From: an uncultured Bacteroidales bacterium
GTDB lineage: Bacteria > Bacteroidota > Bacteroidia > Bacteroidales > UBA10428
Length of the DNA: 64,000 nt
Direction of reading: 5' to 3'
NCBI GenBank assembly: GCA_964503885.1
Contig: CAZDCD010000013.1
Span: forward strand, 50,696-114,695
Shown here in pieces: positions 9,300 through 64,000 of this stretch (positions are counted from its first letter, which is position 1; the number at the start of each line of letters is the position of its first letter). The notes beneath the pieces are model-generated. The model made no database searches. It worked only from the letters and a program-made list of their open reading frames with translations, and had not been told where the DNA came from. Position numbers and translations under genes: made by a program.

Positions 9300-9320
9300 A
9301 TCATATATCACGGTTTACCA

Positions 9321-9355
9321 AAGCCGGACTTACCCGTGTAGGTCCGGCTTTTTTT
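9321..9355 (+). terminator. Rho-independent terminator after dnaK
   Basis: Stem AAGCCGGAC (9321-9329) pairs with GTCCGGCTT (9342-9350) and is followed by a T-run to 9355. Confidence 0.8.
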
Positions 9356-9529
9356 CGCATAAGACAATGTACAATTACAATGCAGTCTTTCTCAGTGTAT
9401 AGTTTGATGGCGTTGCCCGATGTAGTTTTCATACAAATGCACTGCAATAAAAATTAACCTGAGAAGTTATTATCACAAATCCTAAAATAATGCATGCTAA
9501 TTTTATAATTTTATGGATTAAAATAAGGG

Positions 9530-14395: not shown

Positions 14396-14403
14396 TATAT
14401 TTG
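14396..14403 (+). promoter_or_regulatory. Candidate -7 box (TATATTTG) for the Hdr-like operon
   Basis: Exact TAnnTTTG match. It overlaps the track ORF start at 14401, which argues that the real start codon is ATG 14461. Confidence 0.45.
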
Positions 14404-14460
14404 GTGATTCCATCATCAGTTCCGGGAATCAACTCATTATCCCGAACAAAAAAGGCACAT

Positions 14461-15171: not shown

Positions 15172-15187
15172 TAACCGGAAAATACTC

Positions 15188-16261: not shown

Positions 16262-17283
16262 ATAAACGAATAGTAATAATCGGCGGTGGTATTGCCGGCA
16301 TGGAAGCGGCGGCCGTTTTAAGCCGGCTTGATATTGATGTGCTCATCATTGAACAGAAAGAACAGCTTGGAGGTCATGTAAACAACTGGGATCACCTGTT
16401 TCCTTCCATCAGGCCTGCTTCAGAGATCATCAGGTCACTGATGCATGTTTTGAAAAACAAACACATTAAAATATGCATCAATACCAACATAAAGGCATTA
16501 AGCAGGCAAAACGGCAAGTTTAAGGTGATGACCACTCTTAACCAGTCATTCAAAGCGGACGGAATATTGCTGGCCACCGGGTTTGACCTGTTTGATGCCA
16601 GAAAAAAAGAAGAATACGGGTATGGGATCTATGAAAATGTACTGACATCGGCAGATCTTGAGGCTAAATTTAAAAAAGGGAATGCAATCAAAACGGCATC
16701 GGGGAAAATTCCCCGACGCATTGCTATCATTCACTGTGTAGGATCAAGAGACGAAAAGTCTGGCAATTTTCATTGTTCAAAAGTCTGCTGTATTACAGCC
16801 GTGAAACAGGCGATTGAGATCAGGCAAAAATTACCCGATGCTGAAATTTTTTGCTTTTATATGGATCTCAGGATGTATGGAAAGGGTTTTGAAGAACTTT
16901 ACCGTGAATCGCAGGAAAAATGGGGCATTCAGTTTATCAGGGGACGGCTTTCAGAAGCCGCTGAAAATCATGACGGTTCATTGCAGATCAAATCTGAAGA
17001 TACACTTTCCGGACGTCCGCTCAAGATGAATGTCGACATGGTTGTATTGATGATAGGCATAGTCCCTTCCCCGAGTACCCGTCTTATGGGTGATATGCTG
17101 GGTATTCATTTCAGTTCCGACGGATTTATCAGGCACTATGATGAACATCTTGCCAACAACAATACCAATATCGAAGGTATTTTTACTGCCGGCACGGTGA
17201 CTTCCCCTATGAGTATTACTGATACCATAGCTGATGCGCGTTCGGCTGCATTAAAAGCATTCGAGTATGTCACCCAAAGCTGA
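16258..17283 (+). CDS. Short HdrA-like FAD-dependent oxidoreductase with one Fe-S site
   Basis: 341 aa. Dinucleotide fold VIIGGGIAGMEAA. HdrA signature HCVGSRDEKSGNFHCSKVCC. Lacks the ferredoxin and MvhD-interaction insertions of ~650-aa methanogen HdrA. ATGA overlap with hdrB-like. Confidence 0.8.
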   Translation: MNKRIVIIGGGIAGMEAAAVLSRLDIDVLIIEQKEQLGGHVNNWDHLFPSIRPASEIIRSLMHVLKNKHIKICINTNIKALSRQNGKFKVMTTLNQSFKADGILLATGFDLFDARKKEEYGYGIYENVLTSADLEAKFKKGNAIKTASGKIPRRIAIIHCVGSRDEKSGNFHCSKVCCITAVKQAIEIRQKLPDAEIFCFYMDLRMYGKGFEELYRESQEKWGIQFIRGRLSEAAENHDGSLQIKSEDTLSGRPLKMNVDMVVLMIGIVPSPSTRLMGDMLGIHFSSDGFIRHYDEHLANNNTNIEGIFTAGTVTSPMSITDTIADARSAALKAFEYVTQS

Positions 17284-17289
17284 TTATCC

Positions 17290-17622
17290 ATGAGAAATTT
17301 CGGATTCGAGATAGCAAACGACAGGCAGATCGATTATGATACACATAATCACCGGATCCTCAATTTCATACTTGAAAGCGAACCTTCTTTTATGGCATGC
17401 TTGTCGTGTGGCGGATGTACGGCCACGTGCAGTGCAGGTAATCTTATTGATTTCAATATCAGGAGGTTAAATCTGCTATTGCGGCTCGGTGAGATCGGTG
17501 ATCTTGAAAAAGAGATCAACAAATGCATGTTGTGCGGCAAATGCATATTGGTGTGTCCGAGAGGTATAAATACCCGGAATGTGATCCTGAAAATCAAAGA
17601 AGCTGTTGTAAAATTCACTTGA
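17290..17622 (+). CDS. Small 2x[4Fe-4S] ferredoxin-like protein (HdrC2-like)
   Basis: 110 aa. CLSCGGCTATCS and CMLCGKCILVCP. Confidence 0.75.
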   Translation: MRNFGFEIANDRQIDYDTHNHRILNFILESEPSFMACLSCGGCTATCSAGNLIDFNIRRLNLLLRLGEIGDLEKEINKCMLCGKCILVCPRGINTRNVILKIKEAVVKFT

Positions 17623-17623
17623 T

Positions 17624-19450
17624 ATGACCTACCATCCCTTCGTGCTGCCCTTTACTGCGGGACTCATCATCCTGCTGATGATCATGGTTGTCAGAGTATG
17701 GAATTGGATCGTCGTTCTGGAAGCGAAAGATAAAAAAAGGATCCGGCTAAACATTTTTTCGTTCAGGTCGGCAGAAGCTGTAAAAGAGGTATTCCTGGAA
17801 AGCCTGCTGCACCGGAAAATCTTCAGGGCCAACCCGGTACTCGGATATATGCATATGAGCCTGGCGTTTGGCTGGTTTTTGCTCATCATCCTGGGTAACC
17901 TGCAGGCTCAGTTTTACAGCGAGAATATGCTGCACCCTCCTTACTTCCCGATTTTTTTCAATTTCTTTGTGACCACCCCGGGCAATTATCCGTTCAGGCA
18001 TGTCATGGAATTTACCATGGATTTGTTGTTGCTGTTTATCCTCAGCGGATTGATGATAGCCATCATCAAAAGATTCTATGCAAGAATAGTAGGAATGAAG
18101 AAAACCACCCACCTGAAATTTTTTGACAGGCTGGCTTTGTCGTCGCTGTGGCTGATTTTTCCTTTGAGGCTTCTTGCAGAAAGTTTTACTTCGGGGGCAT
18201 TCCATAATGGGAATTTTCTTACCGGATCGCTGGGCAAAGCGTTTGCATCGTTTCTGCCTGTATCGGCTCTGGCAATGCCTGCATGGTGGGCTTATTCGCT
18301 TGCTCTGGGAGCTTTTTTTATTGCGTTACCCTTTTCCAGGTATATGCATATTCCCGCAGAGATGGTATTGATCTTTCTGCGGAATTATGGGGTCAAAACC
18401 CGCAGAGAATTCACTTCCTTTTCTGATGTGGAGGTGCATTCATGCTCTCGGTGCGGATTATGCATCGACACCTGTCAGATCATGAGCTCACTGGGAAAAA
18501 ATGAGATGCAGTCGGTTTATTTTATTCGTTCGATTCGTGAGAATACCCTCGATAACCAGAAATTGTTTACCTGCATGTTGTGTGGAAGATGTGAAAGTGT
18601 GTGTCCGGTAGGCATTCAGCTTTCTGATCTGCGGATTACACAACGAACAAAAAACGGCGTGAAGAATACATCCACCTATGATTTTTTGATTCCTCCTGAT
18701 TATAAGATTGCTGATGTGGTTTATTTTGCAGGTTGTATGACCCACCTGACGCCGGCCATAAAAAAATCAATGCTGAAGATATTCGACATCGCAGGCGTAA
18801 ATTATTATTTTATGGATTCTGATAAGGAAGCCTGCTGCGGACGCCCGCTGATTCAGGCCGGCCATTATGAGGTTGCCGGTAAGCTCATTGAATACAACAA
18901 ACAGCTGATCAGGCAATCGAAGGCAAAGGTGCTGGTCACTTCATGTCCGATATGTTACCGCACTTTCAGGGAGGACTATAAGCTTGATATCCATGTCATG
19001 CATCATACCGAATATATCCTGAAACTTATTGAGGTAGGAATCCTGCTGGTGAACAGGCAGGACATCAATGCTGTGTATCATGATCCGTGTGAACTTGGAC
19101 GTGGGCTTGGAATCTACGATCCGCCCAGGATACTTCTGAATAAGATCGCCAGGTTGAACCATCACGGGAATGAAAAGCAAAACTCGTTGTGCTGTGGGGG
19201 CAGTCTGGCTAGCTTTAATCTGACAACAGAACAACGCAATAAAATCAGGGATGATACATTGGACAAGCTGTTAAGCAGGAATCCCGACAAACTTATAACA
19301 GCCTGTCCGTTATGCAAGAAAACGTTTGGTAAAGGCACACAGGTAGTCGTTGAGGATATCGCGGAGATAGTGGCTTCGGCAGCATATGCACCTGTCAGGA
19401 AGTCAATTGTCAGGGATACAGTATATGAATCCGAGCTGGCTGTTCAATAA
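17624..19450 (+). CDS. Membrane-anchored (Fe-S)-binding protein: NarI/HdrE/DsrM-like polytopic N-domain fused to an HdrD/DsrK-like module (2 ferredoxin motifs plus 2 CCG domains)
   Basis: 608 aa. Residues ~1-250 are hydrophobic helices with conserved His (LLHRK, GYMHMSLAFGW, FSRYMHIP). Then CSRCGLCIDTCQ and CMLCGRCESVCP. Then CCG domains ACCGRP...SCPICY and LCCGGS...ACPLCK. Confidence 0.8.
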   Translation: MTYHPFVLPFTAGLIILLMIMVVRVWNWIVVLEAKDKKRIRLNIFSFRSAEAVKEVFLESLLHRKIFRANPVLGYMHMSLAFGWFLLIILGNLQAQFYSENMLHPPYFPIFFNFFVTTPGNYPFRHVMEFTMDLLLLFILSGLMIAIIKRFYARIVGMKKTTHLKFFDRLALSSLWLIFPLRLLAESFTSGAFHNGNFLTGSLGKAFASFLPVSALAMPAWWAYSLALGAFFIALPFSRYMHIPAEMVLIFLRNYGVKTRREFTSFSDVEVHSCSRCGLCIDTCQIMSSLGKNEMQSVYFIRSIRENTLDNQKLFTCMLCGRCESVCPVGIQLSDLRITQRTKNGVKNTSTYDFLIPPDYKIADVVYFAGCMTHLTPAIKKSMLKIFDIAGVNYYFMDSDKEACCGRPLIQAGHYEVAGKLIEYNKQLIRQSKAKVLVTSCPICYRTFREDYKLDIHVMHHTEYILKLIEVGILLVNRQDINAVYHDPCELGRGLGIYDPPRILLNKIARLNHHGNEKQNSLCCGGSLASFNLTTEQRNKIRDDTLDKLLSRNPDKLITACPLCKKTFGKGTQVVVEDIAEIVASAAYAPVRKSIVRDTVYESELAVQ

Positions 19451-26454: not shown

Positions 26455-26742
26455 ATGAACATTTTTGTAGCAAAATTAAGTTCCTCTACTACAAGTGAGG
26501 ATTTGCAGGAACTCTTTAGTGAGTATGGAGAAGTAACCTCAGCTAAGGTAATTAGCGATAAACTTACCGGGTATTCAAAACGGTTTGGTTTTGTTGAGAT
26601 GAGTAACGACAGTGAAGCATTGAATGCCATCAAGGAATTGGATTCCTGCAGTTACGACAATTCTACCATCGTTGTGAAAAAAGCAAGACCAAAAGAAGAG
26701 AATCAGAAAAGAGAAAAATTCAGTTATAACAACAGGTATTGA
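26455..26742 (+). CDS. RNA-binding protein, single RRM domain
   Basis: 95 aa. RNP2 NIFVAKL and RNP1 KRFGFVEM. Confidence 0.9.
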   Translation: MNIFVAKLSSSTTSEDLQELFSEYGEVTSAKVISDKLTGYSKRFGFVEMSNDSEALNAIKELDSCSYDNSTIVVKKARPKEENQKREKFSYNNRY

Positions 26743-26823: not shown

Positions 26824-27981
26824 TTATCTGCTTTGTATTTGATCCCGACGCATTTTCAAATATTTCTGATAATACTTCTCCGTCAGGTCGTTCATCATCA
26901 GGCGGGCTTTTTCTTCCCGCTCGGTATATTCCTGTCTGGTTTCATCCTTTCTTTTGCCTCCAAAAAAATCGGACTGCGATATTTCATCGTCAATTTCATC
27001 CTGAAAATAATACCAGGCAAATATGCTTTTACTAAGTTTCCATAGCATTACTGTTTTGTCCGCAGATCCGCTGGCCAGATATTTACTGTCGGGACTGAAT
27101 CGTACCGTATTTACCGCATCTTCATGGTTGACAAACGAATACAGCTTGTTTCCGGTATATACTTCCCAGAGGATCACCGTTTTATCGGCGGAAGCGCTGG
27201 CAAGATAATACCCGTCAGGACTAAAAGCAATATCGACTACCCCTTTATCATGCCCGGTAAACGTTTTCAGTACGCTGCATGAATCGGCATCCCAAAGCCG
27301 TATAGTCTTGTCGAGCGAAGCACTGGCAAAGTATTTCCCGGAAGGATGGAACTTAACCGAAAGGATATTTCCGGAATGCCTGTCCATTTTTTTCAATTCA
27401 GTTCCGTCGGATGCATTCCACATCCTTACCGTTTCATCGAGTGATCCGCTCACAATGTATTTGCCATCCGGAGAGATGCAAACCGCCAGGGCGCTTTTCT
27501 CATGACCGTCGAGAGTTGCAGTTACCGTGCCGGTATTAAAATCCCAGACATTGATCTTTTTTGAAAATGATCCGGCCACAAGCCTTCCGGTTCTTTCATT
27601 ATACTCAAAAGACCATATGTGTGTGGTATACCCGCTGAATGCCCTGATGAGGTTACCCTGCAGATCAATCAGTTTTACATCCGGACCCGAAGCCACGAGT
27701 ATCCTGTTATCCCCTGTAAATTGCATGTATTTTACCGGAAAATAATTATTGCTGATGCTATACACCAATTCGCCTGATTCAACATCCCAGATGTTGATCA
27801 CCCTATCTTCTCCACCTGAAGCCAGGTATTTACCATCGTTTGTAAATGCCAGTGCATTTACCGCATCATTATGTTTTTTCAGTATATATACCAGGTTCTC
27901 GTCTTCCTGGCAATAAACCAATGCAGATGCGCCAAGCCATAAAAAAAAGAACATGTACCGTGAAAATATTTTCATAACCAT
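26824..27981 (-). CDS. Secreted WD40 beta-propeller repeat protein
   Basis: Signal peptide. About 7 repeats with GH...WD-type ends (INIWDV, VRMWNA, IRLWDA, VILWEV, VMLWKL). Confidence 0.85.
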   Translation of the reverse strand: MVMKIFSRYMFFFLWLGASALVYCQEDENLVYILKKHNDAVNALAFTNDGKYLASGGEDRVINIWDVESGELVYSISNNYFPVKYMQFTGDNRILVASGPDVKLIDLQGNLIRAFSGYTTHIWSFEYNERTGRLVAGSFSKKINVWDFNTGTVTATLDGHEKSALAVCISPDGKYIVSGSLDETVRMWNASDGTELKKMDRHSGNILSVKFHPSGKYFASASLDKTIRLWDADSCSVLKTFTGHDKGVVDIAFSPDGYYLASASADKTVILWEVYTGNKLYSFVNHEDAVNTVRFSPDSKYLASGSADKTVMLWKLSKSIFAWYYFQDEIDDEISQSDFFGGKRKDETRQEYTEREEKARLMMNDLTEKYYQKYLKMRRDQIQSR

Positions 27982-53515: not shown

Positions 53516-54337
53516 TTAATTGTAAGCTCTGTTCATCAGGTAATAATAGAGTCTGCGGGGCATAAAAGATAGTAATCCCAGTATTGCCCTGTTTGATGAT
53601 CCCGGTATACAAATAATTTCATCCCTTTTAAGACCCAGAAGTGAATAATTAACCACTTCCGATGGTTCCATCCATTTTAACCAGGGCACAGGAACCGCCA
53701 GTTTTGACTTGTCCAGCTTAGCGTGAAAATTGGTCTGCGTAAATCCCGGGCAGAGGCATTGAACCCTGATTCCATACTGATGCAGCTCCAGGAAAAGCGA
53801 TTCGGTAAAACTGGTGAGAAACGATTTGGTACCCGAATACATCGCATTATCAGAGGTAGGGATAAAGGCAGCCATTGAAGTTACATTGATGATAGTTCCC
53901 GATTTCCGGCTGATCATCTGGGGAGCAACTTTATGAATAAGCCTGAGAGGGGCGGTGACGTGTACATCCAACATTTTAAGCTGATTATTCACCCGGTCGG
54001 TACTAAATTTTTCTGCCAGTCCGAAACCCGCATTGTTAACAAGTATTTCGATGGGTTTCTTATTCTCTGCAAGATCAAGCAACCCGTTCATATCTTTTTT
54101 AACGGCAAGGTCGCCTATGAATACATCAACCCGAATCCGGTATTTAATTCTCAGTTCCGCAGCAAACCTGTTGATCTCAGCGTTTCTTCTGCCCGTGATA
54201 ATCAGGTTGTACCCTTCCCTTGCAAATTCAAACGCAAACGCTTTACCAATACCGCTGGTTGCTCCCGTGATCAGTGCATATTTTCCATGTTGATAGCTGA
54301 TACCCTTGTCTCGACTGGTCAGGGGGGCTTTAGGCAT
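53516..54337 (-). CDS. Short-chain dehydrogenase/reductase (classical SDR)
   Basis: ALITGATSGIGKAF (TGxxxGIG), NNAG, YSGTKSF (YxxxK). I place the start at MPKAPL (54337); the ORF is open up to 54502. Confidence 0.85.
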   Translation of the reverse strand: MPKAPLTSRDKGISYQHGKYALITGATSGIGKAFAFEFAREGYNLIITGRRNAEINRFAAELRIKYRIRVDVFIGDLAVKKDMNGLLDLAENKKPIEILVNNAGFGLAEKFSTDRVNNQLKMLDVHVTAPLRLIHKVAPQMISRKSGTIINVTSMAAFIPTSDNAMYSGTKSFLTSFTESLFLELHQYGIRVQCLCPGFTQTNFHAKLDKSKLAVPVPWLKWMEPSEVVNYSLLGLKRDEIICIPGSSNRAILGLLSFMPRRLYYYLMNRAYN

Positions 54338-54689
54338 CGACGGATTTTCAAAAATCCCTGTCGAACCTAAAATTCTGGGCATAAGAAACCTACTGATTTG
54401 ACCGGCTGATCCATTACCTGCCGGTACCTTCGGCATCCGGCTGACGAATGTTTTAAAGCATTCTGAAAAATTCAGTTTAACAGGAAAGTTTAATGTATGC
54501 ATTGGTTCAGTTTTAGGTATGGTTGCTGTATAATAAGACTTAATATTTTTGAAAAGGTTGCATCATTTTTCTCTTTGTTATGCAAATAACATACCATAAT
54601 GGGAGTGAAAGAAAGCGGCCTGATAGAAGTCAAATCCAATACCGGATAGTAATGCCTTGAAGAGTAAAAAAATATTGTTAATTTGTTAC

Positions 54690-54697
54690 CAAAATTA
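54690..54697 (-). promoter_or_regulatory. Candidate -7 box (TAATTTTG on the minus strand) in the gap upstream of the SDR gene
   Basis: Plus-strand CAAAATTA at 54690-54697 is TAnnTTTG on the minus strand. Confidence 0.35.
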
Positions 54698-54946
54698 TGA
54701 AGTATTACACTGCCGGCAGGTAGAAATCCCGATAGCATAGCATATCGGGATAAATGAGTATAATTGCCTTCGGTGAGCTCATATACTCGATTCTCCGATG
54801 CTTGCATCGAACATTAAAAGATATCTTATTGATACACCATCTGCTTGCAGCGGGTAATATATTTCATATGAAGGATGTCCGGCATTACCAACCGGCCCGG
54901 CAAATACGGCCGGTGCAAAAGTTTTCAGGAGGGAAGGTATTGCCTT

Positions 54947-56308
54947 TTAGGAGACGGTTTCTGGTTCTAAAACAAGGGGCGCGATTGCATGTTGACTTAA
55001 ATATGTCAGGCTGGATTTCAGAACCGGAATTCTTCTTTGTTCTACTTTACTTTGTTTCATATGGCCGTAATTCATGGCCAGGTATAGGAGGGGATTGTTT
55101 AAATTTCCCCAGAATCTTCTGAAAATACATGATATACTGTAGAATTTCTGACGTGTTTGTGTTTTTCCAATCTGAAGTTCGTAAGGAGACATTTTTTTTG
55201 GTTCAAATACCACGGTATTGTGATCGTAAAATTGCCAGTCGGTTGTGAGTATCCTTTCCTCTTTTTCAAGGTCTGCAAAGGTCTTGGTTCCGGGGTAAGG
55301 GGTTAATACATTAAATGATACGGTACCTATCTTGTTTTTTACAAGGAATCTGAGCGTTTCCGCAAATGTACTTTGGGTATCGTTGTCAAAACCAAAGATC
55401 ATTGAAGCATGAATGAGTATCCCCATTTTATGGATCTTTTTGAGAGCGCTTTCCAGTTGGCTGACTTCTTTTATTGATTTATGCATGGTTTTCAGCTGGC
55501 TTTCCGAAACGCTTTCCAAACCAATGAATAACGCTCTGCAGCCACTTTCACAAGCAAGCTGCATCAATTCCGTATCTTTTACAAACGATATGGATGCCTG
55601 TCCTACCCATTTTATTTTCAGCGGTTTGATTGCCCTGAACAATTCCTTGGCATATCTAGGATGTCCGATGATGTTGTCATCAAGGAACATGAAGTTTTTT
55701 GCTCCGGATTCAGTAATGTCGCGTACCACATTTTCAACCGGCAGGTGGCGTATCTTTTTACCGAAAAGATCGGTTACACAGCAAAAATCACAGTCATACG
55801 GACATCCCCGCGTTGTCATTATCGGAATGATATTAAACAACCTTTTTTGTATAATCCTGCTGAAATTTTTGGGAACATACTTGCTGAGGTCAGGTTCCGG
55901 GTTGTGATATCGCTTCTTTAACGTGCCATACTGAAAGTCGAATAGGAGGGTCTCCCATATTCCCTCGGCTTCACCGATAACCACTGAATCTGCATGCTGC
56001 AAAGCTTCTTCAGGCAGGATTGTCGGATGAACGCCTCCAAGGACCACGGTTTTTCCTCTTCTTTTGAATTCGCGGGCAATTTCGTACGATCTTGGGGCAT
56101 TGGCTGTCATACAACTTATCCCCACCAGGTCACATTCTTCATCAAAATTCAATATCTCTGCTTCTTCCTCCACCAGTTTAACCTCATGTTCAGCCGGTGT
56201 TATACCCTCCAGGATGTATAAAGCAAGCTGTGGCATTCTGAGCCCTTTGTTGGTTCTTTTGGATGCGTTTACTGCGGGTGATATCAACATAATTTTCATT
56301 TTTGACAA
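54947..56308 (-). CDS. B12-binding-domain radical SAM enzyme (class B), paralog C
   Basis: 453 aa. N-terminal cobalamin-binding-like Rossmann region (DLVGISCMTANAP...VVLGGVHPT). Cluster motif TRGCPYDCDFCCV. Confidence 0.85.
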   Translation of the reverse strand: MSKMKIMLISPAVNASKRTNKGLRMPQLALYILEGITPAEHEVKLVEEEAEILNFDEECDLVGISCMTANAPRSYEIAREFKRRGKTVVLGGVHPTILPEEALQHADSVVIGEAEGIWETLLFDFQYGTLKKRYHNPEPDLSKYVPKNFSRIIQKRLFNIIPIMTTRGCPYDCDFCCVTDLFGKKIRHLPVENVVRDITESGAKNFMFLDDNIIGHPRYAKELFRAIKPLKIKWVGQASISFVKDTELMQLACESGCRALFIGLESVSESQLKTMHKSIKEVSQLESALKKIHKMGILIHASMIFGFDNDTQSTFAETLRFLVKNKIGTVSFNVLTPYPGTKTFADLEKEERILTTDWQFYDHNTVVFEPKKMSPYELQIGKTQTRQKFYSISCIFRRFWGNLNNPLLYLAMNYGHMKQSKVEQRRIPVLKSSLTYLSQHAIAPLVLEPETVS

Positions 56309-56341
56309 TTTTTATGTTTATTTTTATGGTATAATTTCCTC

Positions 56342-57514
56342 TTAATTCATTAATGAATGAACTGTTTCTTGCTTGGGTATTAAATAATTATCAGTATTCA
56401 CCAGGGGAATTTCATTATTCAGCTCATGATTACCGAGGCGCTTAAGCATTTTTATATGATTCCGTATGGCATGAAAAAAAGTAGGTTGTACATGATAGGG
56501 TAAGCCAAATTCTGCTGAAGTCTGTTTGACGAATTTTGATACTGTATAATAATGAACATGACAGATATTGGGAAACAGGTGGTGTTCAATCTGGAAATTC
56601 AGTCCACCGATCAGCCATGAAAAAATCCTGCTTTTTGGAGCATAATCAGAAGTTGTCAATACCTGATGAATGGCCCAATTGTTTTCCATATTCCCTTTAT
56701 TGTCAGGCAATGGATATTCTGAAGACGGCATAATATGTGCAGGTTGAAAGATAGCACTTAGTGAGAGACCCATGATCGAATGCATAATCATAAAGGAAAC
56801 CACTATTAACCAGACGGGCACAGGCAATAAAATTACAGGGAGTGCAATGAAAACGAAATAGTAGAGGGCTTTCCAGATTATTTCCTTTGCGAATTCCATG
56901 GAAAATTCCTTATTTTTTTTGATAAGATTTTTCTTTCTGTACCTGAAAAATTGCAGGATATTCTTTGATGTGACCCATAACAGGGTTGAAATTGCATAAA
57001 AGAACCAGACATAAATATGCTGAAAACGTTGAATAGCGTGTTTTTCCGAATGAGGCGAAAACCTGAGGAAATGGGGAACATGAATATCATCATCGGCATT
57101 TTCGATGTTTGTATAGGCATGATGGAGATAATTATGTTGGATCTTCCATAAATAGGAATTTCCCCCCAGCATATTCAATGTATATCCCAGAAGTTTGTTG
57201 ACCCTGCGGTTTCCTGAATAGGAACCATGATTGGCGTCGTGCATTACAGAAAGTCCGATGCCCGCCATGCCTAATCCCATTATGATCCAAAGCAGCAGAA
57301 AAAGAATGCTCCCGGAAAATACACCTGTTATCATCATCGAATAGGGAATGATGAACAGTGAAAACATAAAGACTGTTTTCAGCACCATGTTTTTATTTCC
57401 ATATTTGGAGATCCGGTTCACTCTGAAATAACTGTTTACTCTTTCCCGCAATGTATCAATAAATTCAGGTCTTGTTTTTGGTGAAAATTTTATTGTTTCT
57501 ATATTGTTTATCAT
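56342..57514 (-). CDS. Membrane fatty-acid desaturase, front-end/sphingolipid-desaturase-like histidine boxes
   Basis: 390 aa. His boxes HDANHG, HNYLHH and QIEHHLFP (Q-type third box). Four or more TM helices. No fused cytochrome b5. Confidence 0.85.
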   Translation of the reverse strand: MINNIETIKFSPKTRPEFIDTLRERVNSYFRVNRISKYGNKNMVLKTVFMFSLFIIPYSMMITGVFSGSILFLLLWIIMGLGMAGIGLSVMHDANHGSYSGNRRVNKLLGYTLNMLGGNSYLWKIQHNYLHHAYTNIENADDDIHVPHFLRFSPHSEKHAIQRFQHIYVWFFYAISTLLWVTSKNILQFFRYRKKNLIKKNKEFSMEFAKEIIWKALYYFVFIALPVILLPVPVWLIVVSFMIMHSIMGLSLSAIFQPAHIMPSSEYPLPDNKGNMENNWAIHQVLTTSDYAPKSRIFSWLIGGLNFQIEHHLFPNICHVHYYTVSKFVKQTSAEFGLPYHVQPTFFHAIRNHIKMLKRLGNHELNNEIPLVNTDNYLIPKQETVHSLMN

Positions 57515-57553
57515 GTTATATAATCCTTATTTACATCGTCTTAATACATAACC

Positions 57554-59038
57554 TTAGTTTGATATCCCCTTGAAGACTTTTCTGTAATGGTATCCGTAAA
57601 TGCTGTAGGTTATTGCAAGAGGAAACAATTCGGGTTTTTTCAGAAGACTCCAGAAAAAAAGTTTCCAGTAATAGATCCGGCTTTTATTGAAGATGCCGAT
57701 GATAAAAATAGATTTGGTCAGAGTGATAAGATCTTTAAAAGAAATCTTTCTTATGGTTTTTAATGGCGGGTTATAATGCCTGAGGAATGATATTACACGG
57801 TTGTAATACGCCTTACTCGAATAGATGCCCTGTATGATTTTCTGATAGCCGTTAAGAAGGTCCTGCTTATTCATTTTTGGTATAAAATTCAGCGAATAGT
57901 TGGTATTGTCTCCGCTCCATTCGTTGGTGATACGACCTTCTTTCATCAGCCGTTTATAGAGCAATGTTTTTTTTGGTGCATTCAGCAATCCCACCATAGC
58001 CGATACGATTCCGCTTTGCTGGATAAAATCGATCTGATGCTGGAAAACAGCCGGCGAATCATTATCGAAACCCACTATAAATCCGGCCATAACCTCCATT
58101 CCGGCCAGTTGGATGGTTTTTACACTGTCAACCATATCCCGCCTTTCATTCTGGGTCTTGTTGCATTCGGCAAGACTGGCTTCTTCAGGTGTTTCAATAC
58201 CTACAAATACCCTGTAGAATCCTGCTTCCACCATCAATTTCATGAGTTCGGGATCGTCTGCAAGATTGATGGATGTTTCGGTAAGAAAAGTGAACGGAAA
58301 TTTGTTTTTCTCCATCCAATTGATGAGCGCAGGCAGAAGTTCTTTCTTTAAGATATTTTTATTGCCGATAAAATTATCATCCACAAAAAATACCGGTCCG
58401 TCCCAGCCTGTTTTCTTTATGTTATCGAGTTCCATCAGGATCTGACGGCTGGTCTTCAGCCTGACCTTGTGGCCAAAAAGTGCGGTGATGTCGCAAAATT
58501 CACAATTGAAGGGGCATCCTCTTGAAAACTGTATGCTCAGGGTTCCGTATTTCGAAACGTCGATCAGGGAGTAATCGGGCAGAGGGGTGCTGGTCATATC
58601 TGCAAATTCTTCAGATTGGTAAATCCTTTGAGGCCGTCCTCTTTCCAGGTCATCGAGAAAGCGGGGTAATGTAATTTCTGCTTCATCGAGGATCAGGTGA
58701 TCGATATCGCTGAAATTTTCAAAATCGACGGTAAATAATGGACCCCCTGCAACAATTTTTGTGTTCAGCGATTTGCATCTTTTTATGACTTCATTTGCAG
58801 ACGTTATCTGTACCGACATGGCACTGATAAACACATAATCAGCCCATGCAATTTCCTTATCAGTAAGCTTCGAAACATTCAGGTCAATCAGTCTTTTTTC
58901 CCATTCATGAGGCGTGAGTGATGCAGCAGTGATCAGGCCGAGTGGGGGATTCGCCGCTTTTTTGGATATAAACTTCAGTGCATGTTTATAGCTCCAGTAA
59001 GTAGGTGGATATTTCGGATATACAAAAAGTATTTTCAT
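57554..59038 (-). CDS. B12-binding-domain radical SAM enzyme with DUF4070-like C-terminal region, paralog A
   Basis: 494 aa. MKILFVYPKYP...PPLGL...ISAMSVQ (B12-binding-like). SRGCPFNCEFCDI. C-terminal GFIVGFDNDSP...NAPKKTLLYKRL region as in BchE/HpnJ-like class B enzymes. Confidence 0.85.
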   Translation of the reverse strand: MKILFVYPKYPPTYWSYKHALKFISKKAANPPLGLITAASLTPHEWEKRLIDLNVSKLTDKEIAWADYVFISAMSVQITSANEVIKRCKSLNTKIVAGGPLFTVDFENFSDIDHLILDEAEITLPRFLDDLERGRPQRIYQSEEFADMTSTPLPDYSLIDVSKYGTLSIQFSRGCPFNCEFCDITALFGHKVRLKTSRQILMELDNIKKTGWDGPVFFVDDNFIGNKNILKKELLPALINWMEKNKFPFTFLTETSINLADDPELMKLMVEAGFYRVFVGIETPEEASLAECNKTQNERRDMVDSVKTIQLAGMEVMAGFIVGFDNDSPAVFQHQIDFIQQSGIVSAMVGLLNAPKKTLLYKRLMKEGRITNEWSGDNTNYSLNFIPKMNKQDLLNGYQKIIQGIYSSKAYYNRVISFLRHYNPPLKTIRKISFKDLITLTKSIFIIGIFNKSRIYYWKLFFWSLLKKPELFPLAITYSIYGYHYRKVFKGISN

Positions 59039-59056
59039 TATTTAGATATTCCTGGA

Positions 59057-59064
59057 CAAAATTA
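59057..59064 (-). promoter_or_regulatory. Candidate -7 box (TAATTTTG on the minus strand) for the radical-SAM/desaturase operon
   Basis: Plus-strand CAAAATTA at 59057-59064. It lies 19 nt upstream of the ATG at 59038. Confidence 0.45.
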
Positions 59065-59173
59065 TTTTGAAGTTTTTCTATATAAAAATAAAAGGGACAT
59101 CTGACCGGTATACGGGATAAACATGCAAAAAATGTGAGGAATGGTATTTATCGGGGTAGATGGCATTCACCCC

Positions 59174-60025
59174 TCAGGGAGTGGTAATCGCCTCTTTAAC
59201 AAGTAAAAGATACTGTCTTGAAACGGGTATTTCTTCGGGATAACCTGATAGTTTTAGTTTATAACCTGCATATCCATGTGTAAAATCAAGCACAAATTTT
59301 TTGTTTACTATGCATGTACGATGTGTACGGATGAATTCCGAATACTTTTTTAACTGTGTTTCAATATTTCGTAATGTATTGCGGATCAACTTCTGTTGAA
59401 TTTTCTCATCGTCCTTATATAAGATCTCCACATAATTATCGGCTGATTTTACTAAAATTAGATCGTCTATATTCAGCTTAATGATTTCAGATTTATTGTC
59501 GGAACTAAAAACTTCCACGGGTTTGCCTTTTTCTTCTGTATCAGATAAAAGAAGAGAAAGATTGTTATTCTTTTCGATCAGGGCCTGCAATAAATTGTTT
59601 AGGGATTTACGTGTATCGGATGTTATCAGTATAACCAAAGGAACAAGGCTAACCAGTGCAATTTTAAAAATCAGGTACATCGACATTCTCAAAGGACCGA
59701 CATACCGGATATAAAAAACAAAAGCCAGTGAATTAAACAGCCAGATCAATACATAAATCAATGTTTCGGAATGGATGTCCCATTTATTAAAACGTAAAAA
59801 TCCATGAAATGTATAAGGGATTAAGATGCGAAATATCCACATCATAAGATAGGTAATACCTCCAAGTCCTGCAGTATATAAAAGTTTTTCGTCTATGTTG
59901 GGACGGACAGATCCAAAAGGTTGAAAAAACAGGATAAACAAAAATATTCCCAGGCTGATGCCAAAAAATAATTTTAGCTGTTCTTTGAGAGTATATAATG
60001 GGGAAGAATTATTTAACGGATTCAT
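59174..60025 (-). CDS. Membrane-tethered LytTR-family DNA-binding protein (no receiver domain)
   Basis: 283 aa. Four N-terminal TM helices. C-terminal LytTR pattern ILVKSADNYVEILY...IRTHRTCIVNKKFV. Confidence 0.8.
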   Translation of the reverse strand: MNPLNNSSPLYTLKEQLKLFFGISLGIFLFILFFQPFGSVRPNIDEKLLYTAGLGGITYLMMWIFRILIPYTFHGFLRFNKWDIHSETLIYVLIWLFNSLAFVFYIRYVGPLRMSMYLIFKIALVSLVPLVILITSDTRKSLNNLLQALIEKNNNLSLLLSDTEEKGKPVEVFSSDNKSEIIKLNIDDLILVKSADNYVEILYKDDEKIQQKLIRNTLRNIETQLKKYSEFIRTHRTCIVNKKFVLDFTHGYAGYKLKLSGYPEEIPVSRQYLLLVKEAITTP

Positions 60026-60394
60026 CTCATTGTTTAATATTAATGGCTATAAAGAATTGATTAACAAATTTCTAAAATTTATTTAGGCTCAATATCTAAT
60101 TTAAGTCACTAATGGTCATAAGAAAGACCTTTAGAATGAGGGAAAAATGAACAAATTATTGGTAAAGTGGCAGTTATTCCTAAATTCATTGACTTTATTT
60201 TCACCATCTATAAATTATATACATTTTTTTCGTAAAAAATATTACAGTAAAGTTATTACCTTTTCCGGTAAATTGAACCAGTCTTATTTAATTTTTCTAT
60301 CTAAAATAATCAATTGAAGCCTGTTTTAATACTTTGTTAATCTATCCTCCAACCGGTTAACCGCCCTGTACAGATTTTAAGTGTTATATCTATT

Positions 60395-60583
60395 CTATAA
60401 AACTGCTGTTATTCTGAAAACAGCAGTAAGCTCACTGGTAATGATCGCCGGATAAATTTTAGCTGCATTATCAAACGGGATCCAAAACGCCTTTTTATCT
60501 TGATATGTACTATTTTTACTCTTCAAATTTCTTTTTATGGTTGGTTTCTGCAAAAATATCGAATAGTATCTTCGATTTTGCAT
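60395..60583 (-). pseudogene. Possible N-terminal remnant of a condensation/alcohol-acetyltransferase-like gene
   Basis: The 62-aa ORF contains WIPFDNAAKIYPAI, which I recall as the start of about 450-aa acyltransferase-like proteins. The ORF ends inside a perfect hairpin ACTGCTGTT/AACAGCAGT (about 60401-60428), and no continuation is seen. Confidence 0.3.
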
Positions 60584-60615
60584 GAATCTTGCTATTAGTT
60601 AACGCTTAATTTCAT

Positions 60616-61065
60616 ATGAAAGAACTGACAATAATATTTTTTAGCTCATGGAAATTTGCCGCTACTTTTCCGCTGGCCATTTATGCCATGAAAATGTCGA
60701 CGACTGAAACCCTTGTATATACAAATGCCGGTGGCATAATCGGCGTTCTCGTTTTTGTTTTTTTTTCAGATATGCTTCTTAAAGCATACAACAGATACTG
60801 GCCCGCAAGCCTGAAATTTAAAAAGAAAACACGGGTTGTTTTTACAAAAAGGAACAGGCGATTGGTCAGCATCAAAAAAAAATACGGGTTATCCGGGATT
60901 GTTATCCTTAGCCCGCTGATCCTCTCGATACCCATAGGGGCATTTCTTACTGTAAAATATTACGGGAAGAAAAAAACAAACATACTCTGGCTTATTGCCG
61001 GACAAATTTTCTGGTCAGCTATTTATACATTGTTTTATACACGAATAAGGACAACTTTTCTTTAA
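60616..61065 (+). CDS. Small membrane protein (4 predicted TM helices), function unknown
   Basis: 149 aa. Hydrophobic segments separated by a KKKTRVVFTKRNRRL basic loop. Confidence 0.55.
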   Translation: MKELTIIFFSSWKFAATFPLAIYAMKMSTTETLVYTNAGGIIGVLVFVFFSDMLLKAYNRYWPASLKFKKKTRVVFTKRNRRLVSIKKKYGLSGIVILSPLILSIPIGAFLTVKYYGKKKTNILWLIAGQIFWSAIYTLFYTRIRTTFL

Positions 61066-61100
61066 TTCATCTACCTCCGATAACCCAACCAGACAATATA

Positions 61101-61560
61101 CTTAACGTGAGTTCGGCATAAAAATATTTTTATACAGGATTAATAGCATATTCCTATTTACCAAAGAAACCTTCTCTAAACCTGGAGATTATCGATCAAT
61201 CATTGGCTTTAGCTTGTTAATATTATGTCGAACTCACGATAAATTAAAACTATTTGGCATATACAGTATGATCATTAGTATTTAAAATCTTACTGGTTAA
61301 CATGCTCTTATAGAGAAAACCCCGGAGGGGTTAAATATGAATAGCCCCGGATAAAATCCGGCGTAAGACATCAAACTCTAAAACAGAACCCTAAAGGGGT
61401 TCAACCAGATAATTAGCAACATATCAACCACAGGTTTCACCTGTGGCTATTCACATTTAACCCTGTCTGCCGATAGGCAGGCGCTTCGCGGTTATATCTC
61501 ATTAACAACAATATAGCACATTTGAATTGAAATTCTTATATCGAACTCACGTTACTTAAG
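61101..61560. repeat. Inverted-repeat-bounded, hairpin-rich non-coding element (MITE/REP-like)
   Basis: TAACGTGAGTTCG (61103-61115) is the reverse complement of CGAACTCACGTTA (61542-61554). A third direct copy, CGAACTCACG, is at 61229-61238. The interior at 61318-61490 holds six consecutive short GC stems. Confidence 0.6.
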
Positions 61561-61620
61561 TAAAAATCTAAAGTACCGGAATTATCCCTTCATAACCTAT
61601 GAATTATGTATCAGTTATTT

Positions 61621-61628
61621 TACCTTTG
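61621..61628 (+). promoter_or_regulatory. Candidate -7 box (TACCTTTG) for the AraC-family gene
   Basis: Exact TAnnTTTG match, 41 nt upstream of the TTG start at 61669. Confidence 0.4.
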
Positions 61629-61668
61629 CACAGGAAATATGATGCAACAAGTTTAGTACTTCTCTAAA

Positions 61669-62229
61669 TTGAAACTCTATATTAAAAATATGGTCTGCAT
61701 CCGGTGTAAGATGGTTGTTAAGTCTGAACTGGAAAAACTGGGGTTGCATTTTGTGTCGGTAGAATTGGGTGAAGCAGTAATCATGGAAAACATTTCGCCT
61801 GAGAAACTAAAGTTGTTTGATGAAAGCCTGAAAAGATCGGGACTTGAACTGATGGACAATAAAAAAAGCATGCTGATTGAAAAAATTAAGAACAGTATTG
61901 TAGAGCTGGTGCATTATTCAGAAGATCAGATAAAAGTTAATCTGTCGGATTACCTAAGTGAAAAGCTGAATTTTGACTATACATATCTTGCAAACATTTT
62001 CTCTGAAGTTCAGGGTACCACGATCGAGAAATTTTATATTGCCCACAAAATTGAAAAAGTCAAGGAACTGATTGTATATGACGAACTCAATTTGACCGAA
62101 ATAGCAGATAAATTGCATTACAGCAGTGTTTCCCATCTTTCGAACCAATTTAAAAAAATCACCGGCCTCACACCTTCACACTTCAAGAAACTTAAGGAAA
62201 AAAGACGGATTGCACTCGAAGATGTGTGA
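61669..62229 (+). CDS. AraC-family transcriptional regulator with small HMA-like N-domain
   Basis: 186 aa. MKLYIKNMVCIRCKMVV (ferredoxin-like HMA-type start). C-terminal HTH_AraC LTEIADKLHYSSVSHLSNQFKKITGLTPSHF. Apparent TTG start. Confidence 0.8.
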   Translation: MKLYIKNMVCIRCKMVVKSELEKLGLHFVSVELGEAVIMENISPEKLKLFDESLKRSGLELMDNKKSMLIEKIKNSIVELVHYSEDQIKVNLSDYLSEKLNFDYTYLANIFSEVQGTTIEKFYIAHKIEKVKELIVYDELNLTEIADKLHYSSVSHLSNQFKKITGLTPSHFKKLKEKRRIALEDV

Positions 62230-62361
62230 ATTATGCAATTCTATTCCGGAATTGTGTAAAAAGATTGGAATTTATATTTCTGACCTTTACACAACGAATA
62301 CAATAAATTCCGGGAAATAAGTATATCATGATGCTATTTTCCGGTTTTATGCATTTCCCAG

Positions 62362-62781
62362 ATGATCAAAACTCCGAAATATTATCTTAATGAGATCTTC
62401 AATAAATTTATTGAGCCTTATTTTTCGCTAAATAATTATATTATTTCATTGGAATGGGATACTATTTATGGTGCATATAAATATGTAGTTACTCCCAAAG
62501 GGAACCTCAATAAGTTTATCAGCCTTTACCTTTTCGGACATGGTATGAAAAATAATTTTGAAATGAGAATCATATATACCCATATTGATGAATTCAATAA
62601 TCATTATACAAAAAAACTAACATTTTTACTGGCATTTGATGACATAAACAGGTTCAATAATTTTTACAAAGACTTTATAAACGAACTCGATGAAAAGAGT
62701 TTGAACGATATCAATATCGGGGTATTACGACCAATACTCCCTGTTTTCATACCAAAGCGCCGTGGAAAATATACCTCATAA
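62362..62781 (+). CDS. Hypothetical protein (139 aa), AT-rich, no recognisable domain
   Basis: ORF only. N/K/I/F/Y-rich composition. Confidence 0.4.
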   Translation: MIKTPKYYLNEIFNKFIEPYFSLNNYIISLEWDTIYGAYKYVVTPKGNLNKFISLYLFGHGMKNNFEMRIIYTHIDEFNNHYTKKLTFLLAFDDINRFNNFYKDFINELDEKSLNDINIGVLRPILPVFIPKRRGKYTS

Positions 62782-62917
62782 TGCTTCATTGAGATAAAAA
62801 CAGAATCTTGATGCAAGTATGCATCTATTTGAATTAAGCCTTGAAATTTAAAATTGTTTTTAAGTTGAGATTAATATTAGTGAAAAATCCACATTACCAT
62901 AAAACCAATTAAAAATA

Positions 62918-64000
62918 ATGAATATTCTATTTGTTTATCCGCTCTATCCCGATTCATTCTGGAGTTTCAGCCATGCCCTGCGATTTATCTCTAAAAAAGC
63001 AGCAGTGCCTCCTTTAGGGTTAATAACAGTATCTGCTATGCTGCCGTCTGACTGGCAGAAAAAACTGGTGGATATGAATGTTACAGCACTAAAGACAAAA
63101 GACTTACAATGGGCCGATTATGTGTTTATCAGTGCAATGTATATTCAAAAGGAATCGGTCAACAAAATTATTGACATATGTGTAGAAAATGACGTTAAAA
63201 TGGTCGCCGGTGGCCCCCTGTTTACCCGGGAATTTAAAAACTATCCACAGATTGACCATTTTATCCTGAATGAAGCAGAAATTACATTGCCCCTGTTTCT
63301 GAACGATTTAAGCAATGGCATTCCGAAAAAGGTATACAGAACGGATAAGTATTCAGATATTTCGCATACCCCGACACCTGATTACCACCTTTTATCAGGG
63401 AAAAAGTATGCGTTTATGAACATCCAGGTCTCAAGAGGATGCCCCTTCAATTGTGAATTTTGTGAAATAACGTCTCTTTTTGGTCACAGGGTCAGAACAA
63501 AATCGATTAAGCAGATCATTGATGAACTTGATGCATTGAACAACCTGAACTGGCGTGGACCGGTATTTATCGTGGACGATAATTTCATAGGGAATAAAAG
63601 TGAAATCAAAAATAATTTGCTGCCGGCAATGAAAAAATGGATGCAAAGGAATAAATACCCGTTTACATTCAATACAGAAGCTTCAATTAATCTTGCAGAT
63701 GACGAAGAATTAATGCGGCTGATGGTTGAAACAGGATTTAATTCGGTTTTTATCGGTATCGAAACTCCCGAAGAAAGTTCTCTTCATGAATGCAATAAGG
63801 TTCAGAATAAAAACCGCAATCTTTTGATGAGTATTAAGAAGATACAACAGGCGGGATTACAGGTTTCAGGAGGATTTATTGTGGGTTTCGATAATGATTC
63901 GCCGGCTGTTTTCCAGCATCAGATCGATTTTATCCAGCAAAGCGGAATCGTATCGGCTATGGTGGGATTGCTGAATGCACCGAAAAACACCCGGCTTTAT
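62918..64000 (+). CDS. B12-binding-domain radical SAM enzyme, paralog B (3' end outside the window)
   Basis: Absent from the ORF track because no stop is reached. ATG at 62918, frame open to 64000. Translation MNILFVYPLYPDSFWSF...PPLGL...SRGCPFNCEFCEI...GFIVGFDNDSPAVFQHQIDFIQQSGIVSAMVGLLNAPK is collinear with paralog A. Confidence 0.85.
   Translation, partial: MNILFVYPLYPDSFWSFSHALRFISKKAAVPPLGLITVSAMLPSDWQKKLVDMNVTALKTKDLQWADYVFISAMYIQKESVNKIIDICVENDVKMVAGGPLFTREFKNYPQIDHFILNEAEITLPLFLNDLSNGIPKKVYRTDKYSDISHTPTPDYHLLSGKKYAFMNIQVSRGCPFNCEFCEITSLFGHRVRTKSIKQIIDELDALNNLNWRGPVFIVDDNFIGNKSEIKNNLLPAMKKWMQRNKYPFTFNTEASINLADDEELMRLMVETGFNSVFIGIETPEESSLHECNKVQNKNRNLLMSIKKIQQAGLQVSGGFIVGFDNDSPAVFQHQIDFIQQSGIVSAMVGLLNAPKNTRLY

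Follow-up and report, generated by a model that had tools for sequence, protein, structure and literature searches.

In Bacillus subtilis the acyl-lipid desaturase Des, controlled by the DesK/DesR thermosensor, is induced by cold and fluidises existing lipids on cooling. Di-iron desaturases need O2, and the locus described here touches the question of how strict or facultative anaerobes adjust ready-made membrane lipids when they cool. It lies in a 64,000-nucleotide stretch of an uncultured Bacteroidales genome (contig CAZDCD010000013.1, positions 50,696 to 114,695; hereafter the window) and brings together genes for three radical S-adenosylmethionine (rSAM) enzymes with B12-type domains (rSAM-A, rSAM-B and rSAM-C), a membrane desaturase, and regulators of the LytTR and AraC families. 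Our favoured reading, to which we give about an even chance of being correct, is a stress-responsive, probably cold-responsive, operon for membrane-lipid remodelling with an O2-dependent arm and O2-independent arms. What is new here is the modular cassette, its candidate LytTR operator and promoter, and its linkage to cold-shock genes.

The O2-independent lipid-tail desaturase and methylases that we found in the literature are archaeal only: Ted is a B12 rSAM enzyme that desaturates lipids independently of O2, and lipid-tail methylases occur in archaea too (bioRxiv 10.1101/2025.10.20.683597). A part in membrane adaptation has been discussed for Ted and for the methylases of glycerol dialkyl and glycerol monoalkyl glycerol tetraethers (GDGT/GMGT) (bioRxiv 10.1101/2025.10.20.683597; PMC11214058). 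Ted, Gmm, Cgm and Pgm are B12-domain rSAMs with a predicted peripheral attachment to the membrane; they methylate or desaturate inert lipid tails independently of O2. They offer a functional analogy for rSAM-A and rSAM-C, one of description and not of compared sequence, and differ in being archaeal, in their isoprenoid tetraether substrates and in their gene context (Grs and AttH hydratase).

HpnP, the hopanoid C-2 methylase, and HpnP-like proteins share with rSAM-A and rSAM-B a layout of B12-binding, Radical_SAM and DUF4070 domains; HpnP-type lipid enzymes work in oxygenic cyanobacteria, and HpnP-like proteins of unknown function have been treated by Hoshino et al. (PMC10697835). Unlike HpnP, the family described here comes with no evidence of hopanoid synthesis. 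It occurs in anaerobic phyla and is linked to LytTR, cold-shock domain (CSD) and RNA recognition motif (RRM) genes rather than to hpn genes, none of which was found in the 64-kb window or in the flanks of related loci. Beyond the archaeal and HpnP-like papers, the searched literature held no characterised bacterial counterpart, no cold-induced B12-rSAMs and no link between LytTR and rSAM genes, and a 2026 review of lipid-modifying rSAM enzymes devotes no section to bacterial fatty-acyl enzymes of such a type (PMC13459092).

The likeness to Des lies in a membrane di-iron desaturase placed under what would be a membrane-embedded sensor, and here the desaturase subfamily repeatedly adjoins CSD genes. 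The differences are that the sensor is a single polypeptide with transmembrane (TM) helices and a LytTR domain instead of a histidine kinase with a response regulator, that the desaturase is of the QxxHH front-end type, and that two rSAMs share its operon.

The cassette and its enzymes

We assigned genes and domains from a list of open reading frames (ORFs) and Pfam scans of the window proteins (Table 1). All the ORFs and Pfam domains named in the first-pass annotation, an earlier reading of this DNA from its letters, were borne out. The genes for rSAM-A, the desaturase and rSAM-C follow one another on the minus strand with intergenic gaps of 39 nt and 33-42 nt, and a terminator scan found no terminator-like site in either gap. 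Co-transcription of the three genes is plausible because the gaps are short and lack such sites.

The order LytTR, rSAM-A, desaturase, rSAM-C recurs in three related loci (L001, from a 6.2-Mb Bacteroidales metagenome-assembled genome; L004/L005; L006/L007), and L172/L173 carries rSAM-A, desaturase and rSAM-C with no adjacent LytTR gene. The triad is therefore a conserved neighbourhood: four other lineages have it independently, with desaturases at 62-69% identity. The closest relative for the regulators is L174/L175 (LytTR 77%, AraC 87% and rSAM-B 82% identical), where LytTR and rSAM-A are followed by rSAM-C after an 18-nt gap, without a desaturase. Another locus, L018, has LytTR, rSAM-A, an rSAM-B-type gene and a broken desaturase. 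Among the 80 best genome loci of the rSAM-A family, to which all counts for this family refer, about 70 have neither desaturase nor rSAM-C nearby. As judged from gene content and order, the cassette is real and conserved in a clade of uncultured Bacteroidales, but modular. Since a desaturase-less dyad exists and each component occurs alone elsewhere, the enzymes probably act in parallel under common control and not in a linear pathway.

All three rSAMs have a CxxxCxxC motif and an N-terminal B12-type Rossmann domain, which places them in class B. They had been annotated as three paralogs, and this holds for rSAM-A and rSAM-B, which are 63% identical over 360 aa and which a neighbour-joining tree places as Bacteroidota paralogs inside one tight family. 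It does not hold for rSAM-C, a member of a distinct B12/rSAM family that is 27% identical to rSAM-A and lacks DUF4070. The cluster motif is CPFNCEFC in rSAM-A and rSAM-B and CPYDCDFC in rSAM-C, and its cysteines are invariant in the rSAM alignments A2 and A3. For rSAM-C, a 450-aa database protein (P0241) implies the ATG at 56299 as start. The HpnP-type three-domain layout is complete in rSAM-A. Two of the domains are visible in the part of rSAM-B that lies in the window, and DUF4070 is present in its full-length orthologs (503-508 aa, 80-82% identical; L004 and L174).

The rSAM-A family comprises 371 genome matches, about 60% identical across phyla, in Bacteroidales, Prolixibacteraceae, Ignavibacteria, Desulfobacteraceae, Bacillota and further groups. 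Among the Prolixibacteraceae, the LytTR-rSAM-A unit is carried by cultured Draconibacterium (D. sediminis, D. mangrovi) and Tangfeifania diversioriginum. The JGI name for homologs, YgiQ (UPF0313), was rejected on a score of 21 bits with the YgiQ model against a cut-off of 462. The rSAM-C family is 70-82% identical across Bacteroidales and consists mostly of single genes; homologs at about 72% identity stand alone in varied contexts.

Tandem rSAM genes were also seen elsewhere. In six Ignavibacteria-type loci (L042, L047, L056, L075, L078 and L086) a divergent B12-rSAM of about 514 aa, about 21% identical to rSAM-C (tblastn), lies directly upstream of the rSAM-A-family gene (at about 8420-9970 where the flank is complete), preceded in several of them by a LuxR-type response regulator. 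The upstream gene is another rSAM paralog, 38-41% identical to rSAM-A, in L071 and L076, and a truncated one in L058 and L060. On these gene orders, tandem rSAM pairs recur outside Bacteroidota with differing partners.

Because rSAM-A has the architecture of the lipid methylase HpnP (PMC10697835), a lipid substrate for the rSAMs is a reasonable guess. Besides the HpnP layout, the hints of a lipid are an aromatic and cationic tail, a FabK-like neighbour, and a membrane acyl desaturase as operon partner. The last 74 aa of rSAM-A contain 21.6% F/W/Y, 17.6% K/R and 2.7% D/E, a composition consistent with interfacial membrane binding or an anchor. The AlphaFold2 model of rSAM-A (pLDDT 85) has AprD4, MgmA, CysS, MiaB and TsrM as nearest solved folds in Foldseek, and that of rSAM-C (pLDDT 78.8) has AprD4 and MgmA at the top. 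OxsB and TokK are further class-B fold matches of the two enzymes. All these matches lie at 12-19% identity, and thus fix neither substrate nor reaction.

The desaturase is a front-end-type di-iron enzyme and an integral membrane protein with predicted TM helices. Its histidine boxes HDANH, HNYLHH and Q(I/N/V)(E/V)HH are kept across relatives, with Q308, H311 and H312 invariant (alignment A4); the third box, earlier annotated as Q-x-x-H-H, reads QIEHH in the window. Three histidine boxes, a glutamine in the third and integration into the membrane are shared with cyanobacterial and other front-end (delta-6 type) desaturases. The window enzyme lacks the cytochrome b5 fusion that marks eukaryotic front-end and sphingolipid delta-8 desaturases: FA_desaturase (residues 70-342) is the sole Pfam match. 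No NCBIfam desaturase equivalog matched, the best being CrtR (23.9 bits against a cut-off of 475). A search of 5.8 billion proteins, in which the 8,000 candidates that shared most words were scored, returned only seven that are closely related (62-72% identity). Those that come next are at most 56% identical and are solo genes of aerobic Cytophagales and Flavobacteriales. Relatives are annotated at source as 'linoleoyl-CoA desaturase' or 'acyl-CoA desaturase', and the 55%-identical homolog L008 has no rSAM-A, rSAM-C or LytTR genes nearby. A metagenome scan found no cassette-type close relatives (best matches 53-56% identical), and none of 80 metagenome desaturase homologs has rSAM-A, rSAM-C or LytTR genes in its vicinity.

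An O2-dependent desaturase between two O2-labile rSAMs had been pointed out as an oddity of the locus. The conflict is softened and the oddity largely explained, because the desaturase is optional, the flank of a relative carries a Cu/Zn superoxide dismutase gene, and HpnP works in cyanobacteria.

Regulator, candidate operator and cold-shock neighbours

At least three TM helices (residues 19-37, 88-106 and 116-134) are predicted in the LytTR protein, N-terminal to its DNA-binding domain. Pfam returned no Response_reg match, that is, no receiver (REC) domain, and the N-terminal 135 residues hold the TM helices; the BtsR and LytR models of NCBIfam score 21-27 bits against cut-offs of 246-375. 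A LytTR homolog lies directly upstream of the rSAM-A homolog, on the same strand, in 21 of the 80 loci, as well as in L001, L004, L006 and L174. The membrane LytTR gene is the sole widely conserved neighbour of rSAM-A in Bacteroidota.

LytTR operators consist of two direct repeats of about 9 bp, spaced two helical turns apart and abutting the promoter of activated genes. In an alignment (A1) that spans about 110 nt ahead of rSAM-A in 13 non-redundant loci, the proximal TCCC is invariant. Most loci have another copy, (A)TCCC, 20-21 nt upstream of it, a spacing in line with that of LytTR operators. A TAnnTTTG box with invariant TA..TT columns lies about 30 nt downstream of the proximal TCCC. In the window the repeats form ATCCCGTATACCGGTCAGATGTCCC, and the box TAATTTTG lies 29 nt downstream of the proximal repeat and 18 nt upstream of the rSAM-A ATG, in agreement with the -7 box that had been annotated before the first ATG. 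We take TAATTTTG to belong to the Bacteroidota TAnnTTTG consensus. Upstream windows totalling 12.9 kb contain 12 copies of the exact repeat pattern, compared with 32 copies in 2.38 Mb elsewhere, an enrichment of about 70-fold in the 160 nt upstream of rSAM-A homologs (Poisson P ~1e-18, an optimistic value as related loci are counted as independent). The pattern is kept in three loci with no adjacent LytTR gene (L027, L085 and L172) and is present also in L174. Taken together, the TCCC repeat pair is a likely LytTR operator.

Within the window alone the pattern is not significant, with four matches against 1.8 expected. A second exact match, ATCCCGGTATACAAATAATTTCATCCC, lies antisense in the SDR coding sequence and has an ATCCCG(G)TATAC core in common with the rSAM-A operator. 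Given these counts, it is probably a chance match. A scan for sigma-70 promoters gave 33 sites against 38.5 expected and is uninformative for Bacteroidota, and the combined pattern TTTG-N17-21-TAnnTTTG is not enriched. An Rfam search of 52-64 kb returned no riboswitch or known RNA, only a chance snoRNA match, and hence no cobalamin or SAM riboswitch in that interval.

No TCCC repeat site was found upstream of rSAM-B, which is presumably controlled by the AraC regulator. The order AraC, (orf), rSAM-B is kept in L004/L005 (AraC 76% identical) and L174 (AraC 87%). An ortholog of orf139, 62% identical, holds the same position in L004/L005 and is absent in L174. The N-terminal 70 or so residues of the AraC protein contain an M-V-C-I-R-C motif that resembles the MxCxxC metal-binding motif of HMA domains; Pfam gave no HMA match there at E <= 0.01. 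Through this region the rSAM-B regulator may sense metals or redox state. The gene for the small membrane protein sm149, which has only a weak Pfam match (Sm_multidrug_ex), is divergent from the LytTR gene. Its orthologs (60-66% identical) keep this divergent position in L001 and L010, and that of L174 (66%) lies beside AraC.

Cold-shock genes recur around the cassette and its relatives. In L172 and L174/L175, rSAM-C faces convergent sigma-70, CSD and RRM genes, and a series of CSD, RRM, CSD, FabK-like, sigma-70 and CSD genes lies downstream of the cassette in L007. In L004 and L174 a CSD gene follows rSAM-B on the same strand. In other phyla, CSD or RRM genes were found within a few kb of rSAM-A-family genes in 10 of 80 loci, compared with 0 of 56 control loci (Fisher P = 0.004), and an RRM gene comes directly after the rSAM-A-family gene in five Desulfobacterota-type loci. 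The desaturase shows the same association on its own. Four of the nearest stand-alone desaturases (53-54% identical) are followed, after about 54-100 nt, by a CSD gene of the same orientation (P = 4e-4 for the desaturase-CSD linkage), which suggests a desaturase-CSD operon in the organisms of L093, L094, L095 and L099. In L092 and L112 the CSD gene is about 1.3 kb downstream of a stand-alone desaturase homolog. By gene neighbourhood, and from three independent sides, the linkage of cold-shock genes to the cassette, to rSAM-A/B homologs and to desaturase homologs is recurrent.

Genes for Dps, LuxR-type response regulators and a FabK-like flavoprotein of the NMO family also recur nearby. The last comes directly after the rSAM-A homolog in at least six loci (L012, L013, L014, L016, L017 and L040) and occurs also in L007 (7131-8207); it scores 144-152 bits with TIGR03151 against a cut-off of 453 and could be an electron donor or a fatty-acid-related enzyme. 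A large beta-barrel-like protein is often encoded next after it.

Membrane lipids or other substrates

In the membrane-lipid reading, the membrane-integral LytTR protein would probably bind the TCCC repeats upstream of the Bacteroidota-type promoter and drive rSAM-A, desaturase and rSAM-C as a single transcription unit. AraC heads a second unit with rSAM-B, after which a CSD gene stands in relatives. Stiffening of the membrane, most likely in the cold, would call on the module to remodel acyl chains of lipids already in place. Given O2, the di-iron desaturase would add double bonds, and the two types of B12-domain rSAM would act on unactivated carbons of the chain independently of O2. The chemistry to expect of this class by default is C-methylation; desaturation is the alternative, with Ted as an archaeal precedent. 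Gene content, the conservation and modularity of the cassette, its conserved cis-element and the recurrent cold-shock linkage are observed, whereas we infer LytTR binding to the repeats, cold induction, the lipid substrate of the rSAMs, their use of cobalamin and the type of reaction.

A more specific form of this reading is possible, though less probable than the general one, and we advance it tentatively. The three rSAMs would be the first bacterial enzymes to modify membrane acyl chains after synthesis and without O2, by mid-chain C-methylation or radical desaturation switched on by a one-component, membrane-embedded LytTR sensor of membrane state, with the desaturase as a micro-oxic add-on. 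Such a system would be widespread, from Bacteroidota and Ignavibacteriota to Desulfobacterota and Bacillota, and would do under anaerobic conditions what Des/DesK does in the cold response. If the lipid reading is true, the locus represents a new bacterial mechanism of membrane adaptation, and anoxic sediments could owe methyl-branched or unsaturated lipid biomarkers to it. If it is false, the association of LytTR, rSAM, CSD and RRM genes still marks an uncharacterised stress module. In either case the locus offers two gene families, about 60-80% identical across hundreds of genomes, with a candidate regulator and operator.

Several observations weigh against a lipid-remodelling operon. No NCBIfam model reached its curated cut-off with any of the rSAMs, among models that include HpnR, HpnJ, BchE, the ladderane rSAM, Tes, PhpK, MJ_1487, MgmA-type and AprD4. 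The best scores were 90 bits against 600 for rSAM-A, 97 against 600 for rSAM-B and 110 against 251 for rSAM-C, and the HpnR and HpnJ models gave 41-54 bits against cut-offs of 578-650. The B12-binding domain is borderline in rSAM-A (32.6 bits, cut-off 32.1) and under the cut-off in the rSAM-B fragment. The nearest solved structures act on an aminoglycoside (AprD4), protein (MgmA) and RNA (MiaB). AprD4 and MgmA resemble the rSAMs in an N-terminal B12-type Rossmann domain and an rSAM barrel (Foldseek E 1e-19 to 1e-15, TM-score 0.6-0.76), and differ in sequence (16-19% identity) and in substrate, which for MgmA is a protein glutamine. AprD4 is a dehydratase and, in spite of the same N-terminal domain, is not known to use cobalamin. 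Neither reaction nor cofactor is therefore settled by the fold match, and cobalamin dependence of the rSAMs is likely, not established.

On the regulatory side, the repeat pair is less clear in Prolixibacteraceae, and the enrichment P-value for the operator is optimistic, as said above. Cold-shock linkage holds in only four of the six independent cassette loci. No CSD gene was found in the L001 flanks or in the visible window, where the nearest RRM gene is 27 kb away. The linkage is guilt by association between genes and not expression data, and an RNA-directed function would explain the CSD and RRM neighbours just as well. Finally, we know of no lipid phenotype in the cultured carriers Draconibacterium and Tangfeifania.

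The main rival takes up this last property of the neighbours. The rSAMs would modify RNA or proteins (rRNA, tRNA or ribosomal proteins) in cold or stress, and the desaturase would adjoin them only because all are cold- or stress-induced. The recurrent RNA chaperones (CSD, RRM) and sigma-70 genes agree with such a shared regulon, as do Foldseek matches to enzymes of RNA or ribosomal proteins (MiaB, RimO, MtaB) and to the protein methylase MgmA. An identity of about 60% across phyla would suit a conserved macromolecular target, and the stand-alone homologs of rSAM-C look housekeeping-like. However, the MiaB and RimO models of NCBIfam give only 18-47 bits against cut-offs above 250, the regulator is embedded in the membrane, and rSAM-A combines an HpnP-type architecture with an aromatic, cationic tail. 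The FabK-like neighbour and the joining of rSAM genes with a membrane desaturase in one operon, in several lineages, also speak against RNA or protein targets. On balance we regard modification of RNA or protein as rather unlikely.

We consider it improbable that the genes encode a linear pathway, in which the desaturase would set a double bond, the rSAMs would elaborate it by methylation or cyclisation, and the SDR would reduce the product to a special lipid or sphingoid. Tight packing of three genes in an operon conserved in four other lineages is what such a pathway would predict, and class B rSAMs can act on both sp2 and sp3 carbons (PMC13459092). Against it, rSAM-A and rSAM-C are joined directly in L174/L175, most homologs of both have no desaturase nearby, and the desaturase subfamily is mostly solo. 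The SDR had been placed about 600 nt past rSAM-C. The gene is present, at a distance of about 445-610 nt that varies with the start codon chosen, and no SDR ortholog was found in the flanks of L001, L004/L005, L006/L007, L172/L173 or L174/L175 (L172 has an unrelated SDR 4 kb off on the opposite strand), so that 'reduction' falls outside the unit. The lipid-tailoring pathway of the first-pass annotation thus keeps a lipid substrate as a reasonable guess and loses its obligate order and its reduction step, and tailoring of sphingoid bases found no specific support.

Tailoring of a peptide or natural product made nearby (a secondary metabolite or a ribosomally synthesised and post-translationally modified peptide) is very improbable and we reject it: weak similarity to the PhpK, ApyD, KedN5 and peptide C-methyltransferase models of NCBIfam and small unannotated ORFs of 46 and 64 aa in L006/L007 are in its favour, but these ORFs are not conserved, no locus yielded a conserved precursor, transporter, RRE/SPASM element or core biosynthetic gene, and an identity of about 60% across many phyla with varying neighbours is atypical for tailoring enzymes.

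Feature coordinates and surrounding DNA

Table 1. Features of the locus and its surroundings in window coordinates; the last four rows are in coordinates of the respective metagenome contigs
Feature	Coordinates	Strand	Description
Hdr-like cluster	14401-19450	+	4Fe-4S dicluster, CCG-domain, Pyr_redox_2 flavoprotein and 608-aa Fer4 + CCGx2 proteins
RRM gene	26455-26709	+	42-47% identical to RRM genes beside rSAM loci elsewhere
WD40 protein	26824-27981	-	385 aa; multiple WD40 repeats
SDR (short-chain dehydrogenase/reductase)	53516-54502	-	adh_short (Pfam); domain begins at residue 74 of long ORF
Second operator-pattern match ATCCCGGTATACAAATAATTTCATCCC	53599-53625	+	probably a chance match
rSAM-C	54947-56299 (long ORF to 56308)	-	450 aa; B12-binding 54.8 bits, Radical_SAM, no DUF4070
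Desaturase	56342-57514	-	390 aa; FA_desaturase, E = 2.8e-35
rSAM-A	57554-59038	-	494 aa; PF02310 32.6 bits (cut-off 32.1), PF04055, PF13282 127.5 bits
-7 promoter box TAATTTTG	59057-59064	-	sequence read; TA..TT columns invariant in alignment A1
Putative LytTR operator ATCCCGTATACCGGTCAGATGTCCC	59094-59118	-	two (A/T/G)TCCC direct repeats, 20 nt start-to-start
LytTR regulator	59174-60025	-	283 aa; PF04397 56.9 bits, E = 2.4e-15, residues 180-280
Gene remnant	60329-60526	-	first 66 codons of a 434-aa protein
sm149	60616-61065	+	small membrane protein, 149 aa; at least two predicted TM helices
19-nt motif TAACGTGAGTTCGGCATAA, copy 1	61103-61121	+	
19-nt motif, copy 2	61223-61241	-	
Structured segment	61313-61500	+	about 190 nt
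19-nt motif, copy 3	61536-61554	-	
AraC regulator	61669-62229	+	186 aa; Pfam HTH_18 and HTH_AraC
AraC N-terminal region	61669-61880	+	M-V-C-I-R-C motif
orf139	62362-62781	+	139 aa, between AraC and rSAM-B; no Pfam match
rSAM-B	62918-64000 (window edge)	+	open through 361 codons; Radical_SAM; B12-binding 28.7 bits, under cut-off
CSD gene after desaturase, L093	3621-3806		
CSD gene after desaturase, L094	8164-8358		
CSD gene after desaturase, L095	3588-3773		
CSD gene after desaturase, L099	3602-3787		

The stretch at 59-63 kb has a GC content of 0.29-0.36 compared with about 0.38-0.45 in its flanks, and had been annotated as an accessory island with gene remnants and an element resembling a miniature inverted-repeat transposable element (MITE). 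It is AT-rich and holds one verified remnant; a mobile element is unproven. The remnant is 59% identical to the N-terminal part of a 434-aa protein without Pfam match. In L174 (4518-5822) this protein is intact, and two more genes, DUF6320 and Rce1-like, come after it in the interval from sm149 to LytTR. The intact gene in L174 points to a deletion in the window lineage, which on this comparison has lost about 3 kb between sm149 and LytTR, and not to an acquired island. The island reading is weak, as AraC (87%), sm149 (66%) and rSAM-B (82%) are syntenic in L174 and a deletion scar accounts for the remnant. Compared with its relatives, the AT-rich stretch is mostly regulatory DNA and small syntenic genes, and not obviously an acquired island.

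The same stretch contains three copies of a 19-nt motif, TAACGTGAGTTCGGCATAA, for which none would be expected by chance. A MITE was rejected: the repeat occurs only these three times, all in 61.1-61.6 kb, and the intergenic DNA has no copies elsewhere in the window or in related loci. Among the repeats, between sm149 and AraC, lies a strongly structured segment with a minimum free energy of -74.6 kcal/mol (z = -6.4 against shuffles). The segment and the intergenic DNA have no Rfam match and no other copy in the window or in related loci, and the segment could be a lineage-specific non-coding RNA, a leader or a degenerate mobile element.

Two further features lie elsewhere in the window. The window RRM gene adjoins the gene for the multi-WD40-repeat protein. 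The Hdr-like proteins mentioned in the first-pass annotation are present as a cluster resembling heterodisulfide reductase, which is consistent with an anaerobic lifestyle and energy metabolism.

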